A program made the translations under genes and the position numbers. This document shows positions 1-55,686 of a stretch of 64,000 nucleotides of DNA, one piece after another. This DNA is from a candidate division FCPU426 bacterium (GTDB lineage: Bacteria; Oederibacteriota; PGYV01; Palsa-1178): assembly GCA_003159495.1 (NCBI GenBank), contig PLPI01000054.1:8409-72408 (forward strand), written 5' to 3'. The notes under the pieces are model-generated. The model was not told the DNA's origin. It did no database searches and was given only the letters and a program-made list of their open reading frames with translations. The first letter of the stretch is position 1, and the number at the start of each line of letters is the position of its first letter.

Positions 1-50
1 AAAAAGTCCCGCCTGAACGGCCGGCTTTGCCTTTACTTTAATAATTATAA

Positions 51-89
51 ATTGTACTTTTTGGTTTTGCCTTTCAACTTTTACATTTT
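51..89 (+). repeat. Dispersed AT-rich intergenic repeat ('T motif', core TTTTTGGTTTTG); copy 1, preceded at 1-22 by an 'aaaaagtcccgcc' head also found at 23281
   Basis: attgtactttttggttttgcctttcaacttttacatttt. Near-identical cores at 13101, 17747, 20871, 23835 and, in reverse orientation, 55533, with a degenerate copy at 55654. Confidence 0.6.
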
Positions 90-5384: not shown

Positions 5385-5497
5385 GTTCCCGGTATATGAC
5401 ATTTTTATTGGATTGCCGCCCGGTATAATATAGACGGCCCCTGCGGGGCCATCATATGAGCGGCGCAAGGCCAATAAAAATGTCATATACCGGGAAC
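5385..5497. repeat. 113-bp MITE-like element with perfect 27-bp terminal inverted repeats
   Basis: 5385-5411 gttcccggtatatgacatttttattgg is the exact reverse complement of 5471-5497. The interior carries the GC hairpin ggcccctgcggggcc and a catatgagcggcgcaagg block shared with repeats at 23331 and 23747. Confidence 0.6.
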
Positions 5498-13020: not shown

Positions 13021-13067
13021 TGGAAAATTAAAAAGGTAAAATCTGAAACCAAAAAGAAATAAAAAAA

Positions 13068-13094
13068 GGCGGCGTTTTTACACCGCCTTTTTTT
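13068..13094. terminator. Intrinsic terminator between convergent genes
   Basis: ggcggcg-tttttaca-ccgcc hairpin followed by a T-run. An A-run precedes it, so it can serve both strands. Confidence 0.5.
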
Positions 13095-13100
13095 ATTTTA

Positions 13101-13134
13101 AATGTTCTTTTTGGTTTTGAGTTTTACATTTTAA
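13101..13134 (+). repeat. T-motif repeat copy 2
   Basis: aatgttctttttggttttgagttttacattttaa. Confidence 0.55.
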
Positions 13135-17626: not shown

Positions 17627-17746
17627 TAAAAACTCCTTAAATTCAAAAGTTAAAATGCAAAACCAATAATTACAACTGTAAAAGTTGACAAGTGAAACAG
17701 GGCAAAGCCGCCCTGCTCCAATATTTTTATTACTTTGAAATTTAAT

Positions 17747-17787
17747 AGTTGCACTTTTTGGTTTTGACTTTTGACTTTTAACTTTTC
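17747..17787 (+). repeat. T-motif repeat copy 3, in a divergent promoter region
   Basis: agttgcactttttggttttgacttttgacttttaacttttcc. Confidence 0.55.
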
Positions 17788-20843: not shown

Positions 20844-20870
20844 AATTAAATTTAAAGGGCAAAATCAAAA

Positions 20871-20909
20871 AGTTATAATTTTTGGTTTTGAATTTTAACT
20901 TTATAATTT
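20871..20909 (+). repeat. T-motif repeat copy 4, with an adjacent partial inverted copy (caaaatcaaaaag) on its 5' side
   Basis: agttataatttttggttttgaattttaactttataattt. Confidence 0.55.
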
Positions 20910-20951: not shown

Positions 20952-21590
20952 TTATTCAAATGCTATATCGGAAACCGCGATATTGACAGTGTCGCCGTCC
21001 GGGCTTGAAAAATGGAAGTTGATGTTATGCGCATTTTTCAGGACTTCTTCGATCGGAAATGTCTTTTTTGCCCATTTAGGCTGTTTTAAATCTTCCCTGA
21101 GATCGATTTTTACGGTCTCGCCGTCTTTGGAAAGGTATTTATTCAAGGCAACCTCGTAATCCGCATAGTCAGTCAGGCTTTTTGCGGTTTTTGCATCCTG
21201 CTGGCATTCGTTCGCGGAATAAGGGATTGCAAGCGTAAGGCGTCCGCCGGAAATAGAACCCTTGATTTTAAATGAAAGGGTCTTGTAGCCGGTTAAATCA
21301 ACGGGAACTGCCCCTTTTCCCTCGTAGCATCCGCATTTTTCTCCAAGCGTCAGCCCCATGCCGATATAGTCCCAGCCGAGTTTGTTGCCTGTTTTGCCCG
21401 ACATTTTTCCCGGCGTGAAAGTAACCTCTGAATTGCCGCCGCTGGACGAGTCGTTGTAGGAATACCACCATCCTCCGCATGCCGCCGGGTTCTTATCCGG
21501 GGTGTTGTCAACTATAAACTTATTCCCCGCCAGCACTGCCGCGTACATTGCAAGAACAATTACCGTAGCCATTACAAATGCTTTTTTCAT
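20952..21590 (-). CDS. Secreted beta-sandwich (carbohydrate-binding-module-like) protein, paralog of the anti-sigma sensor domain
   Basis: Signal peptide. Shares WxYNDSxxGGNS, DYIG, SLTxYADY and IDxRxDLxQP motifs with the C-terminal domain of the CDS at 21620-22456. Confidence 0.5.
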   Translation of the reverse strand: MKKAFVMATVIVLAMYAAVLAGNKFIVDNTPDKNPAACGGWWYSYNDSSSGGNSEVTFTPGKMSGKTGNKLGWDYIGMGLTLGEKCGCYEGKGAVPVDLTGYKTLSFKIKGSISGGRLTLAIPYSANECQQDAKTAKSLTDYADYEVALNKYLSKDGETVKIDLREDLKQPKWAKKTFPIEEVLKNAHNINFHFSSPDGDTVNIAVSDIAFE

Positions 21591-21619
21591 CTGAAACGCC
21601 TCCTTTGAAGTTTTTGTTT

Positions 21620-22456
21620 TTAATAAAATTCAAGCCTGTCTATCCAGATATCAACCCTGCGGCCGTTGCCGTTCATATACTGCCATTTAATAATATTGGC
21701 GTCGGACAACACATCCTCGATGGAAACCAGATATTCCGGTTTTGTCCCGGCCGGCTGTCTTAAATCTTTCCTGAAGTCGATCTTTACCTTTTTCCAGCGC
21801 GGGGTAATGTATTTTGTGATATCCGCCCCGTAATCGGCATAGCTGGTCAGCGACCTGCAGATGCCGCGTGAGGCGTCTATCCGGCGCGATTCGTGCGGCA
21901 GCATGAAAATAACATTTCCGGCAGTGACCGAACCTTTTATCATGAACTCAATACCGCTGAATTTTGAAAGGTCTATGCCGACGCATTCGGGGCAGGTTGA
22001 GTGGGGGCTTAAAAAAGTAGTTACCCCTATATAATCATCGCCGAGTTTTGTGCCGGCTGTTCCCGTTATCCTTACGGCGTAGCCTTTTCCCGTGCAGCCC
22101 GGGGAACTTTTTACAAAGCTGTTTTCGCCGTTCTTTGAGGCCGGCGGCCAGACGACGGAATTGCCGCCCTGCCAGCTGTCGTTATATGTGCACCACACCC
22201 CGCCGAGTTCGTTGACACTGCTGTTGGTGTAATTATAATCTATCCTCATATAATAAGCCGCGGCCGCGACGACGAATATAATGGCATATACAGGCATAAG
22301 GCGCATGAATATGTGTGGCATCCCGGAGGCCGAAGAGGCTTTTTTTATGAGGGCGGCCCTTAACTTTGACATATTTTTTTCCAGGCCAATATTCCCGAAT
22401 TCGATCTTATCACTTTTCATTTTATAAGCCCTCGCTTTCATTTTTCCCTGCGTCAT
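21620..22456 (-). CDS. Putative anti-sigma factor: short cytoplasmic N-terminus, one TM helix, extracytoplasmic CBM-like sensor domain
   Basis: Lies immediately downstream of, and overlapping, the ECF sigma gene. TM segment LMPVYAIIFVVAAAAYY. C-terminal domain paralogous to 20952-21590. Start codon uncertain. Confidence 0.5.
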   Translation of the reverse strand: MTQGKMKARAYKMKSDKIEFGNIGLEKNMSKLRAALIKKASSASGMPHIFMRLMPVYAIIFVVAAAAYYMRIDYNYTNSSVNELGGVWCTYNDSWQGGNSVVWPPASKNGENSFVKSSPGCTGKGYAVRITGTAGTKLGDDYIGVTTFLSPHSTCPECVGIDLSKFSGIEFMIKGSVTAGNVIFMLPHESRRIDASRGICRSLTSYADYGADITKYITPRWKKVKIDFRKDLRQPAGTKPEYLVSIEDVLSDANIIKWQYMNGNGRRVDIWIDRLEFY

Positions 22457-23060
22457 ATATAATGCCCGCGGCCGGATTTGGTTGCATTGAACCTCTTATC
22501 ATTGAAAGGCCGCGTGAAAGGATGGATTTTACAGTCCCCGCCTTTTTATTGAGCGCGGCGCTTATTTCGGATATCTTCATTGAATCAAAAAATCTCATGG
22601 AAAGGACTTCCTGGTAAAGCGGGGGAAGCTTTACCAGTTCCGCATGCACAAGAGCGAAAAGGCTGTTATTGTCTATTGCCTTCTGGGCGTTTTCAAGTTC
22701 CTCGTTCAGGCTGTTTGAGGAGCGCGGCTCGTAAGACGGTGAGTTTTCTATCAGCTCGTCAAGCGAAGCGGGCGCATATTTTTTTGACCTGAAATACATG
22801 TTAACTTCATTTGAGGCTATCCTGTAAAGCCATGCCGAAAACGACGCGCCCCGCCACCTGAACTGCCAGAGTTTGTTAAGGGCCTTGAAAAAAGTTTCTC
22901 CCGTTATGTCTTTGGCCGCTTCGGCATTGCCGGTGCGGTATGCCGCGTATTTTAATATTTTTAAGTGATAAAGGTCGAATAAAGCGCCAAAAGCGGCCGG
23001 ATCGCGCCGCGCCGCCTCGACCATTTCTTTTTCACTGATTTTATCCAAAGCCGCCTCCAT
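22422..23060 (-). CDS. RNA polymerase sigma-70 factor, ECF subfamily
   Basis: Region 2 (FGALFDLYHLKILKYAAYRTGN...AEDITGETFFKA) and region 4 HTH (LPPLYQEVLSMRFFDSMKISEISAALNKKAGTVKS). Start placed at MEAALDK. Confidence 0.8.
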   Translation of the reverse strand: MEAALDKISEKEMVEAARRDPAAFGALFDLYHLKILKYAAYRTGNAEAAKDITGETFFKALNKLWQFRWRGASFSAWLYRIASNEVNMYFRSKKYAPASLDELIENSPSYEPRSSNSLNEELENAQKAIDNNSLFALVHAELVKLPPLYQEVLSMRFFDSMKISEISAALNKKAGTVKSILSRGLSMIRGSMQPNPAAGIIYDAGKNESEGL

Positions 23061-23330
23061 AATTATGCTTTCATTATTATACAATGCACGGAGTAAAAAA
23101 AGGTTGCAAAATTCGGTGCCGCCCGGTATGTCGGCCCGGCTTGTGCTCGGTTGTTGCCGTGCGGGCGGAACTTTTTTAAGGCCGTCGTCCAAGTTTGCTT
23201 TAATGCCCGGTAAGAACATTGTTATTAAAGTTTTACCTCTGCTTAATTGACACGGTTCTTATTGTTGGACGCCAGCCATAAAAAAGTCCCGCCCGCACGG
23301 CACCAGGGTTACCGCATTTTCGCCCCTCTT

Positions 23331-23404
23331 AGGGGCCGGCTCATATGCCGGCCAGAACCAGCTCACAACCTCAATTTGTGAGCCGGCGCAAGGTTCATTA
23401 TTAA
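23331..23404 (+). repeat. GC-rich palindromic REP-like element R1, a 74-bp direct repeat of R2
   Basis: aggggccggctcatatgccggcc...gctcacaacctcaatttgtgagccggcgcaaggttcattattaa. 65 of 74 positions identical to 23747-23820. Internal palindromes ggccggc/gccggcc and gctcaca/tgtgagc. Confidence 0.6.
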
Positions 23405-23526
23405 TATTTATCCGGAACATTAGGCCGCGTAAAATGCGTCTAATATATCAAAGAGGAGTGAAGGTGCAGACTTTTATTTAAGCGGTATAACGGGTAAAAT
23501 GAAAGGAAAGGAAGGTGTGAAAATTA

Positions 23527-23708
23527 TGGAAGGAAAAAGGGATTACAGCGAGAAAGAGTCGAAAATAGAGGGAATAATGAGGACTTACAGTTTTGGCCGA
23601 AAAGCCGCTGAAAGAATATACGCCATGATAAAGGATACTGACATATTAAATTCTAATTTTCTGGATATTACGGATAGTGACCGCGATAAGGGACAAAAAA
23701 CAATGTAG
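23527..23708 (+). CDS. Small hydrophilic hypothetical protein flanked by the R1/R2 direct repeats
   Basis: 60-aa ORF with RBS AGGAAGGTG 8 nt upstream; an upstream in-frame ATG at 23499 would give 69 aa. No recognisable motif. Confidence 0.3.
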
Positions 23709-23746
23709 CGGGACACGCCGTTGGCTTGCCGTGTTTTTGTTTTCGT

Positions 23747-23820
23747 AGGGGCCGGCTCATATGCCGGCCCGAACCAGCTCCCAACCACATTTTATGCACA
23801 GGCGCAAGGTTCTTTATTAA
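23747..23820 (+). repeat. REP-like element R2, direct repeat of R1, fused to T-motif copy 5
   Basis: 88% identical to R1. Immediately followed by aattgtacttattggttttgcc (23835-23878). Confidence 0.6.
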
Positions 23821-23834
23821 CTTAAATAATTTTA

Positions 23835-23878
23835 AATTGTACTTATTGGTTTTGCCTTTTAGCCTTTACCTTATATTT
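23835..23878 (+). repeat. T-motif repeat copy 5
   Basis: aattgtacttattggttttgccttttagcctttaccttatattt. Same head-plus-tail arrangement as the element at the window start. Confidence 0.55.
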
Positions 23879-24054
23879 AAACAAAACAAACACTCCCTTA
23901 ACCAACCGTTATTTTATCTGTTTTTTAATTCTGCCTGTAAAATATTTACAAAAATCACAATGTTAGTTTTCACACACATTAATAAACACCTTAAAATAAA
24001 GGGTTTTATTGTATTGAACCATGTGGAAAATGGCTGATTTAACCCAAATTAGCC

Positions 24055-24083
24055 TTGACAGTGGCAGACAGGGGGGGTAAAAT
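24055..24083 (+). promoter_or_regulatory. Sigma70-type promoter of the mraZ/dcw operon
   Basis: TTGACA (24055-24060), 17-nt spacer, TAAAAT (24078-24083). Confidence 0.5.
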
Positions 24084-24091
24084 AGAGAAAA

Positions 24092-24126
24092 GTGGGATAA
24101 AGTGGCATGAAATGGATTGAAATGTC
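24092..24126 (+). promoter_or_regulatory. Putative MraZ operator: four direct repeats at 10-bp periodicity
   Basis: GTGGG-ataaa-GTGGC-atgaa-ATGGA-ttgaa-ATGTC immediately downstream of the promoter. Resembles the GTGGG-N5 direct repeats bound by MraZ in E. coli. Confidence 0.5.
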
Positions 24127-24224
24127 GTGCCGCCGGCCTATTTTATATAGCGCCTGTTTTAGGGGCAAGCTCTAATTATTTTGGATGAATTGGAGCCAAT
24201 TATAAATTTTGAGGTGAAAACGAA

Positions 24225-24656
24225 GTGGTAATAAAAACAGGTTTTGTGGGAAATTTCCGCCATAACCTTGATGTGAAAAACAGGGTTTCTCTGCCCGCCA
24301 AGATAAAAAAGTATATCGAAGAAGTGGCGGAGTCTCCCGAATATTCTTCAAGGATAATGCTTGCAAAGGGCGGCGATTGCATAGAGGGATTTATGGTGGC
24401 CGACTGGCAGCGCATGGTAGAACAGGTGCAGCAGAACATGAGCTTTAAACGAAATGCCGGGGACGAGGAACTTGAAGAAATCGCAATGACGGCGGACCAG
24501 GTACAGATCGACAAAAGCGGCAGGATAATGATAAATGCGGAACTTAAAAAATGCGCTGAAATAGGGAAAAACGTGGTGTTCGTGGGGGCCATTGACAGGT
24601 TCAGGATATGGAGTGCGGAGAAGTTCGATGAAAAATACAACGGAGGCGGCAGATGA
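24225..24656 (+). CDS. mraZ: Transcriptional regulator MraZ
   Basis: Duplicated MraZ fold with DxKxR(V/I)SLP motifs. First gene of the dcw cluster. GTG start with RBS GAGGTG. Confidence 0.85.
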   Translation: MVIKTGFVGNFRHNLDVKNRVSLPAKIKKYIEEVAESPEYSSRIMLAKGGDCIEGFMVADWQRMVEQVQQNMSFKRNAGDEELEEIAMTADQVQIDKSGRIMINAELKKCAEIGKNVVFVGAIDRFRIWSAEKFDEKYNGGGR

Positions 24657-24994
24657 GCTTAAAGACGGAATCGAAAAAGGTTGTTGTCCTTATTTTGAGG
24701 GGAAATATCGACATTGAAGACATGCTGGCGCTGAAAGGCATAGTCACATCATTCATAGAAAAGGAAAATTTCTTTTTTATACTGGATTTCTCCGGTGTTG
24801 ACCATATAAATGTATCCGGCATCGAGTATCTGAATGAACGCAAAGAACGCTCGCGCACCATGGCCGGGGATGTGAAAATAATAGGCGCTTCCGATTATGT
24901 AAAAAATCTTTTCCTGTACGCGGGTTACTGGGGGGAATTCGACTTTTTCCCGACAGAGGAAGACGCGATAAAATCATTTGAAAATATAATATGA
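24653..24994 (+). CDS. STAS-domain protein (anti-sigma-factor antagonist-like) inserted between mraZ and rsmH
   Basis: 113 aa. LDFSGVDHINVSGIEYL matches the SpoIIAA/RsbV-type STAS core with a candidate phosphorylatable Ser. Translationally coupled to both neighbours by overlapping stop/start codons. Confidence 0.6.
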   Translation: MSLKTESKKVVVLILRGNIDIEDMLALKGIVTSFIEKENFFFILDFSGVDHINVSGIEYLNERKERSRTMAGDVKIIGASDYVKNLFLYAGYWGEFDFFPTEEDAIKSFENII

Positions 24995-55528: not shown

Positions 55529-55532
55529 TAAT

Positions 55533-55686
55533 TTAAAATTTAAAAGGCAAAACCAAGAATTGCAATTTAACCCCATATAATTAATAAATTTATGTTGTTA
55601 TTTTTGTTGATTTTTAAGCGTCTCACCCGGTTTTGAACGGCAGAAAACAGCCGCTCTACTTTTTGGTTTATAATTTTAATTTTTGC
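55533..55686. repeat. Inverted pair of T-motif copies (55533-55570 reverse; 55654-55686 forward) bracketing about 85 bp, a MITE-like arrangement
   Basis: The reverse complement of 55533-55570 is aattgcaattcttggttttgccttttaaattttaaat; 55654-55686 is ctctactttttggtttataattttaatttttg. Confidence 0.45.

Follow-up and report, generated by a model that had tools for sequence, protein, structure and literature searches.

A stretch of about 1 kb upstream of the dcw cluster in an uncultured peat bacterium appears almost empty of genes, yet holds two long direct repeats, R1 and R2, on either side of a small open reading frame (ORF), which raises the question of what these repeats are. A sequence-only reading of the window (the whole 64-kb stretch of DNA that was analysed) had proposed three candidates: a family of structured regulatory RNAs, REP/BIME-like elements, and the ends of a small mobile cassette carrying the ORF. 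We conclude that R1 and R2 probably both represent a long form of the GTAG-tagged REP that is specific to this lineage, lying in a BIME-like mosaic around a real small gene. The locus itself was matched at 100% by a Stordalen Mire metagenome scaffold (L001), and many other assemblies carry the same locus.

The borders of the gap were set by its neighbouring genes. On the left, an ORF of 265 aa can be read up to 23219, as an upstream in-frame extension of the sigma factor gene; the Pfam and NCBIfam domains begin at 23063 and the sigma proteins of relatives are 208-216 aa long, and the start was therefore placed at 23063 (Table 1; TIGR02937 score 79 bits against a cut-off of 43). The intergenic gap consequently runs from 23064 to 24224. 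The sequence-only reading was thus correct in describing a low-coding kilobase, apart from the 60-aa ORF within it, but had begun the gap too far to the right, past 23219. The conserved spacer beside the sigma gene probably holds that gene's own promoter. On the right, the control region of mraZ contains a sigma-70 promoter (TTGACA at 24055-24060, TAAAAT at 24078-24083) and four GTGG-type boxes with 10-nt spacing at 24090-24129 which, from established knowledge, we take to be a putative MraZ operator. A tRNA-derived att site was also considered for R and discarded, as ARAGORN detected no tRNA or tmRNA in the window.

Table 1. Features in and beside the sigma factor-mraZ gap and at the start of the window (positions in the 64-kb window).
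Feature	Position	Strand	Basis
Second mosaic end: I1 right arm (1-24) and T copy (35-86)	1-86	+	alignment, nhmmer
ECF-family sigma factor gene, start ATG 23063	22422-23063	-	Pfam Sigma70_r2 and r4_2; NCBIfam TIGR02937
Sigma-side conserved spacer (TATACAATGC..AAAAAGGTTGC.AAAA)	23064-23112	.	aligns with L022 5849-5895 and L044 3610-3675
Putative degenerate repeat remnant GCCGCCCGGTATGTCGGCCCGG	23113-23152	+	by eye, weak assignment
I1, palindromic (MITE/ERIC-like) repeat, 155 nt	23153-23307	+	inverted-repeat search, fold, nine-copy alignment
R1, decayed long-form REP	23327-23404	+	repeat search, folding, alignment
Predicted ECF-type promoter of small ORF (GGAAC 23414-23418, 18-nt spacer, CGTCTAAT 23437-23444)	23414-23444	+	conserved in relatives
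Conserved 60-aa protein gene, RBS AGGAAGG 23510-23516	23526-23708	+	homologs, codon comparison
R2, intact long-form REP	23743-23820	+	repeat search, folding, alignment
T, AT-rich repeat, core TTGTACTTATTGGTTTTGCCTTTTAGC	23817-23872	+	nhmmer, mismatch scan
mraZ control region, conserved	23945-24224	+	promoter scan 11/12; L044, L046, L048
mraZ, first dcw cluster gene	24225-24656	+	Pfam MraZ, E 8e-19

A repeat search of the window recovered R1 and R2 as one two-copy family in direct orientation, 78 nt in length with 87% identity and a start-to-start distance of 416 nt, which confirmed the pair first described as 74-bp direct repeats with 65 of 74 positions identical; no third copy was found by this search within the 64 kb. 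The 22-mer GGGGCCGGCTCATATGCCGGCC occurred exactly twice in the window (23332 and 23748) and in none of 100 shuffles, and in a gapped alignment the similarity reached about 30 nt further to the left (roughly 23296-23404 against 23717-23820). In the long form a T-rich leader is followed by the (G/T)TAG tag, then by an 8-bp GC stem closing a loop of 6 nt, and finally by a tail of about 45 nt. In R2 the tag reads GTAG (23745-23748) and the stem GGGCCGGC/GCCGGCCC pairs 23749-23756 with 23763-23770 around the loop TCATAT (23757-23762). In R1 the tag reads TTAG (23329-23332), the loop TCATAT lies at 23341-23346, and the stem (23333-23340 with 23347-23354) has lost its last pair. The tail of R1 holds a second hairpin that is private to this copy. 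Two internal palindromes had been reported for the repeats; GGCCGGC/GCCGGCC is present in both, but GCTCACA/TGTGAGC occurs in R1 only and neither in R2 nor in the copies of relatives. Because the final 15 nt of R2 (AAGGTTCTTTATTAA) were also found in a relative that has no REP (L044), they were attributed to the sequence flanking the T motif, and the last 15 nt of R1 resemble the start of that flank. Both copies folded better than shuffled sequence (z -3.9 and -3.1). R1 and R2 have leader and tail in common, and the copies in other genomes lack both.

The ORF between the repeats, noted beforehand for its good ribosome-binding site, is a real gene under purifying selection and has its own predicted promoter. 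Its homologs (P0002-P0007) are 56-59 aa long and 71-83% identical, with a near-invariant common core (KIEGIMRTYSFGRKAAERIYAMIKDTDILNSNFLDI). Over the 36 codons of the core, the window and locus L018 differed by 18 synonymous and 2 nonsynonymous codons, and the synonymous excess was alike in all six pairwise comparisons of the core. Sequence searches of Pfam, NCBIfam and PDB gave no family or structure match for the protein. ECF promoters carry AAC in the -35 and CGT in the -10 motif, and on that basis the pair GGAAC-N17/18-GCGTCTAATA is a predicted ECF-type promoter. It stands ahead of the ORF in every context read (the window, L044, L022, L024 and L018), in each of which an ECF sigma gene adjoins the small ORF or lies nearby. 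The hairpin directly after the ORF (23712-23742) was rejected as a terminator, its folding energy of -8.4 kcal/mol (z +0.5) being no better than that of shuffles. Downstream of the gene the one strong structure is the stem-loop of R2, which possibly protects or buffers the 3' end of the gene's transcript.

Two further repeats accompany R. In the palindrome I1, arms of 41 nt flank an asymmetric, conserved centre, and the whole folds into a near-perfect hairpin (dG -74 kcal/mol, z -10); across nine aligned copies from the clade the 32-pair outer stem was kept, with compensatory changes at 6 pairs. I1 was found only in this clade, with 0 matches in viral contigs. The segment AAAAAGTCCCGCC, read earlier as a head preceding R1, is indeed present but is not a separate element, being the right arm of I1. 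The head-plus-T-tail arrangement that the sequence-only reading saw at positions 1-100 is also there, made up of an I1 right arm and a T copy (Table 1); the body of this I1 lies just upstream of the window, at 9697-9858 of L026, with a long-loop REP before it and T after it. The AT-rich T motif after R2 belongs to a genuine repeat family of about ten copies in the window (7 strong and 3 weak nhmmer matches), and a scan allowing 3 mismatches gave 4 matches in the window against 0 in shuffles. Copies of T lie on both strands, and two inverted copies often enclose a GC hairpin where genes converge or diverge, so that the statement that all elements lie in + orientation upstream of + strand genes does not hold. 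The putative degenerate remnant to the left of I1 resembles, by eye, a decayed REP hairpin and the inner left part of the palindrome upstream of purM. The order of modules differed from locus to locus: R-I1-T in L026, I1-R in L036, R-I1 in L032, R-R-I1-R-I1 in L030 and R alone in L037. R, I1 and T are separate modules that cluster as a BIME-like mosaic.

Outside the window, copies of R were found in relatives as three to four head-to-tail units (L030/L043), as single copies (L032, L036, L037 and L046, inverted in the last), and in L026 just upstream of the window, L002 and an unrelated high-GC contig (L035). Besides R1 and R2, eight further distinct copies from the same clade carry the GTAG tag. 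Their stems vary (CCGGC, CGGCC, CGGAC, CCGCC) with complementarity kept, and in two copies a nested palindrome of 38 nt is inserted between the loop and the 3' stem. The sequence-only reading had proposed that conserved structure be examined by covariation, and the stem of the REP hairpin does covary: in an alignment of ten distinct copies 96% of cells were paired, two stem positions showed compensatory double changes (CG/GC; GC/AU/CG), and the covariation score lay above all slid controls and was reached by 0 of 500 shuffles. All clade copies are intergenic. Five were counted in about 137 kb of unbiased clade sequence, and the exact pattern gave 4 copies in a relative's genome (CAYUDX01) and 10 stretches in a JGI metagenome scan, counts that come from incomplete genomes and from exact-match scans that miss diverged copies. 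A generic scan of the window for TAG followed by any GC hairpin gave 9 matches against 8.2 in shuffles, among which only R1, R2 and the element upstream of purM are meaningful.

The hairpin also extends well beyond the clade. The pattern GTAGGGGCSGVCYYRYRTGBCSGCCC gave 142 matches on 108 IMG/VR contigs with GC contents of 38-70%, where chance would give about 0.03 by a rough estimate from the information content of the pattern and an assumed collection size; 137 of the 142 were perfectly paired, though the pattern permitted unpaired combinations. The breadth and exactness with which the tagged hairpin is conserved, on viral-classed contigs as well, are mildly unusual. On the viral contigs its orientation was not clearly biased with respect to neighbouring genes, and clustering of the ORFs within 1.5 kb of the hairpin on these contigs gave no recurrent transposase-like family, only phage structural genes. 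A literature search for the exact letters of the hairpin yielded nothing but coincidental matches to primers. No RAYT homologue was detected at E < 1 by phmmer with E. coli RayT in the window and the fetched relative and viral loci (about 1.2 Mb), and the search of all ORFs of at least 80 aa stayed empty with --max and E 200, with the single query being a distant one and the loci covering a small part of any one genome.

Its anatomy places R among the GTAG-tagged REPs, whose superfamilies are described as having stems of 6-13 bp and an unpaired GTAG tag and occurring as singletons, dimers or clusters (PMC3733652). R is a short imperfect palindrome with an unpaired GTAG-type tag (GTAG in R2, TTAG in R1), and its hairpin is kept through complementary stem changes. 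The candidate of a REP/BIME-like element was therefore borne out, by the GTAG-type tag, the covarying GC-rich hairpin, the extragenic position, the clustering with other modules and the widespread hairpin family.

Comparison with orthologous loci separated the stable from the changing parts of the region. The closest relative found (L044; MraZ 98% identical) matches the window in gene order all the way from the SpoU methylase gene to the dcw cluster, with 89-92% nucleotide identity in the flanks. Its order is sigma gene, I1, partial T, 190 nt, ECF promoter, ORF, I1, AAGGTTCTTTATTAA, T and the conserved mraZ promoter; R1 and R2 are both absent from this locus, and I1 lies on either side of the ORF instead. 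In L022, more distant but with the same left synteny, about 50 nt without repeats separate the sigma gene from the ORF promoter. The mraZ locus of that same species (L046) has an inverted REP with another stem type about 210 nt upstream of the mraZ -35 box. Upstream of mraZ, only about 23945-24224 is conserved among the orthologous loci. What is stable, then, is the ORF with its promoter and the mraZ control region; the surrounding repeats turn over, and this comparison shows R to be dispensable for the genes on either side. Without R, the ORF and its ECF-type promoter are found at the same locus in L044 and L022 and in other contexts in L018 and L024, and R occurs without the ORF in L036, L032, L037, L030 and L026. 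BLAST of R, I1 and T against the ORF-carrying loci of relatives found no R next to an ORF copy. Four independent assemblies stop inside R1 or R2 (L007 at 23325, L008 at 23351, L009 and L010 at 23757). In a contig from a metagenome-assembled genome (L002) homology begins at 23154, inside the left arm of I1, and the left neighbour is a different one (a Thy1-family gene), which reflects either recombination at the repeat or an assembly chimera.

The geometry of the locus invites the idea that R1 and R2 are att-like or terminal direct repeats at the ends of a mobile cassette, for example an R-bearing circle integrated into a chromosomal R. The repeats bracket exactly the promoter, the ORF and its 3' hairpin, their similarity runs past the core of the family into leader and tail, a head-T arrangement without the middle exists at the window start, and in another species an identical small protein with its downstream gene stands in two left contexts (L022 against L024). 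We nevertheless consider this very unlikely, given that the adjacency of ECF sigma gene and ORF is common to L022 and L044, both of which lack R, that no ORF copy elsewhere is flanked by R and no R copy elsewhere flanks an ORF, and that neither an integrase nor a transposase lies in or beside the unit. Homologs of the ORF in other contexts were what the sequence-only reading itself had said would speak against its proposal; they were found without R (L044, L022, L018, L024), they explain the ORF, and with R in turn occurring without the ORF the cassette fails. Still more improbable is a cis-acting structured RNA (leader, riboswitch or attenuator) serving the small ORF from R1 and mraZ from R2, for all that both copies fold better than shuffled sequence and, in + orientation, precede + strand genes. 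R1 is placed upstream of the two divergent promoters: the conserved spacer on the sigma side lies to its left and the -35 box of the small ORF's promoter to its right, and no promoter-like + strand site comes before it; it is therefore unlikely to act as RNA. The conserved promoter of mraZ itself begins about 235 nt downstream of R2. Rfam was empty at the gathering threshold over the 64-kb window, and an E-value threshold gave only spurious sub-threshold matches in 23000-24300. The REP hairpin alone is conserved, its neighbour in R1 being private to that copy, and on viral contigs the REP hairpin family shows no orientation bias to genes. In L044 both genes and both promoters are retained without R1 and R2. 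On these grounds the candidate of a structured regulatory RNA family was given up.

A further alternative dispenses with any transposase and derives the pair from local duplication, recombination or gene conversion alone in a decaying cluster, the hairpins being kept only because they are palindromes or because they serve the host (as a binding site for gyrase, IHF or another protein, or by protecting mRNA 3' ends). It draws on the leader and tail common to R1 and R2, on the 15 nt of the R2/T junction that remain in L044 without the REP, on the rearrangement or chimerism associated with I1 in L002 and on the lack of a RAYT in the 1.2 Mb searched. However, a 26-nt tagged hairpin found in many unrelated contexts and organisms, from 38 to 70% GC, requires a dispersal mechanism or strong sequence-specific selection and not only local duplication, and we judge this account unlikely as a complete explanation. 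The tagged hairpin, of the form GTAGGGGC-NNNN-loop-NNNN-GCCC, could instead be what a broadly distributed enzyme or host factor recognises, or a hitch-hiker between phage and host, and in this clade it might form a composite non-autonomous element with I1 and T. Near-exact conservation across 38-70% GC and more than 100 viral-classified contigs speaks for this view, with no RAYT or recurrent neighbour gene found; we hold it to be decidedly unlikely, though if it were true the tagged hairpin would exceed an ordinary species-level REP family.

Under the preferred reading of R as a long-form GTAG-tagged REP, the small gene and its ECF-type promoter would be the older occupants of the locus, beside the ECF sigma gene, and the repeats would have come later, with the mosaic filling two permissive spacers that flank the gene. 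The repeats appear to turn over fast, being swapped, truncated or absent in close relatives. REP units may spread as single-stranded hairpins cut at GTAG by a RAYT encoded elsewhere in the genome; action of a RAYT-type Y1 transposase on a single-stranded hairpin has been proposed for GTAG REPs (PMC3733652, PMC2817692). The R1/R2 pair may additionally have been shaped by local duplication or recombination, as suggested by the leader and tail that the two have in common and that other copies lack, which fits local duplication better than two independent transpositions. Any effects of the repeats on expression would be incidental, and the repeats would serve as substrates for recombination.

The setting of R1 and R2 is an ordinary bacterial repeat landscape, neither a new regulatory RNA nor a gene cassette. 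The 1.1-kb region upstream of the dcw cluster that seemed empty is now explained as one small, predicted ECF-dependent gene, the conserved promoter and putative operator of mraZ, and repeats, selfish or neutral, that total about 450 nt. Direct-repeat geometry of the kind seen here should not be taken for a cassette or a regulatory RNA. Such repeats break metagenome assemblies and may yield chimeric or rearranged contigs. The tagged hairpin on environmental and viral contigs offers a modest lead for cataloguing REPs and transposases outside Proteobacteria.

Several known systems resemble parts of this mosaic. Like ERIC/IRU, Correia and other MITE-like repeats, I1 is an imperfect palindrome of 150-160 nt that is intergenic, multi-copy and variable between close relatives, and compensatory changes maintain its long hairpin; unlike them, it has an asymmetric conserved centre and was found only in this clade. 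Its inverted arms, size and copy number (nine in the clade) fit a MITE, and neither a target-site duplication at the junctions read nor a parent IS was found. As in enterobacterial BIMEs, REP units are joined in variable order to other short conserved modules in intergenic positions; BIMEs alternate REP orientation regularly and use S, L, r and l linkers, whereas the REPs of this clade are co-oriented (head-to-tail in L030, direct in R1/R2) and their partners are I1 and T, so that the array does not qualify as a classical BIME. REPs of the classical type usually number more than 100 per genome, and in comparison the apparent copy number of R is low (2 in the 64-kb window). In most published GTAG families inverted dimers predominate (PMC3733652), whereas R units stand mostly alone or head-to-tail. 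R also differs in its loop of 6 nt against 2-4 nt in most families, in the leader and tail specific to its lineage, which bring the unit to about 105 nt, in that no RAYT partner was found in about 1.2 Mb, and in that many members of the hairpin family lie on contigs classified as viral. With the GTAG-tagged REPs (Di Nocera, De Gregorio and Rocco 2013, PMC3733652), such as SMAG of Stenotrophomonas and those of E. coli and Pseudomonas, R nonetheless has in common the unpaired GTAG tag at one end, a GC-rich stem that at 8 bp falls inside the range of 6-13 bp, sub-families set apart by complementary stem changes, an extragenic distribution as singletons and clusters, long-loop variants with self-complementary inserts, and the occurrence of one family in distant organisms.

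The tagged hairpin of the REP-like repeat R (GTAG, an 8-bp GC stem and a 6-nt loop; GTAGGGGCSGVC-YYRYRT-GBCSGCCC) occurred 142 times on 108 IMG/VR contigs classed as viral (L051-L158), with GC contents of these contigs from 38 to 70%. Two sub-types of the hairpin were nucleotide-identical between an unrelated high-GC soil contig (L035) and the studied clade (~47% GC). Long-loop variants on a contig that includes sequence just upstream of the window start (L026) and on a contig of GCA_003142155.1 (L002) carried a self-complementary insert of 38 nt (CCTTCGATAAACTCAGGATCATGAGCTTGYCGAATGATG) that separates the loop from the 3' stem and resembles a nested insertion.

Coordinates of the repeat elements, control region and genes described in this part
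Feature	Locus	Coordinates	Strand	Position or composition
Long-loop REP variant	L026	9601-9666		
Long-loop REP variant	L002	5536-5601		
I1-like short palindrome and tRNA-like gene	L159	18950-19450		~6.4-6.9 kb past window end
Genes for 278-aa and 212-aa proteins	Window	20952-22456	-	Downstream of ECF sigma gene
Palindromic element, 113 nt	Window	5385-5497		Upstream of purM
mraZ promoter and boxes	Window	24055-24129		TTGACA-17-TAAAAT, then four boxes
STAS-domain protein gene	Window	24653-24994		Between mraZ and rsmH
Inverted T pairs	Window	13027-13134, 17641-17783, 20848-20907, 55531-55686	-,+	

The purM-upstream element has perfect inverted arms of 27 nt with a TAG-plus-hairpin inside, and a second copy with 93% identity lies ahead of an unrelated gene in a relative (L036 164-265). 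Because GAGCGGCGCAAGG is common to this element and the tail of R, it may represent a fourth repeat family in the mosaic of R, the 155-nt palindromic repeat I1 and the AT-rich repeat T. Paired inverted T motifs, at sites between convergent or divergent genes, were found to enclose GC-rich hairpins, and these arrangements resemble long palindromic elements, or else bidirectional terminators of extended length.

On L002 (8900-9000, compared with window 23154) a Thy1-family gene replaces the ECF sigma gene as neighbour. The switch point falls within I1's left arm, and the I1 interior also differs from that of the window. Either I1 copies have recombined with one another here or the assembly is chimeric. 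At L159, a short I1-like palindrome (arms GCGGGCGGGACTTTTTTAAG) is followed by a tRNA-like gene, a partial second copy comprising the 3' two-thirds of that gene ~200 nt downstream, and a T motif; this order may be what a small integration event left behind.

P0003, a homolog of the conserved 60-aa small protein, is encoded identically in two assemblies but in different settings: it follows FlgD in one (L024 1500-2900) and the ECF sigma gene in the other (L022 5890-7250), with homology beginning exactly at the -35 box. The downstream genes of 84 aa and 83 aa (the latter called as 58 aa in L024) accompany P0003 at both sites. An rve_3 transposase gene adjoins the segment in L024. Downstream of the ECF sigma gene of the window, the 278-aa and 212-aa proteins had no family match, and both genes are syntenic in the relatives L022 and L044. 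The 278-aa protein has a hydrophobic segment following its N-terminal part and may act as the anti-sigma factor.

An insert such as the STAS-domain gene is unusual for a dcw cluster, yet this gene was conserved in every relative examined. The boxes 3' of the mraZ promoter (AAGTGGGATA, AAGTGGCATG, AAATGGATTG and AAATGTCGTG) are spaced at 10 nt, and promoter and array are also kept in L044, L046 and L048. This array is probably the operator for MraZ autoregulation.
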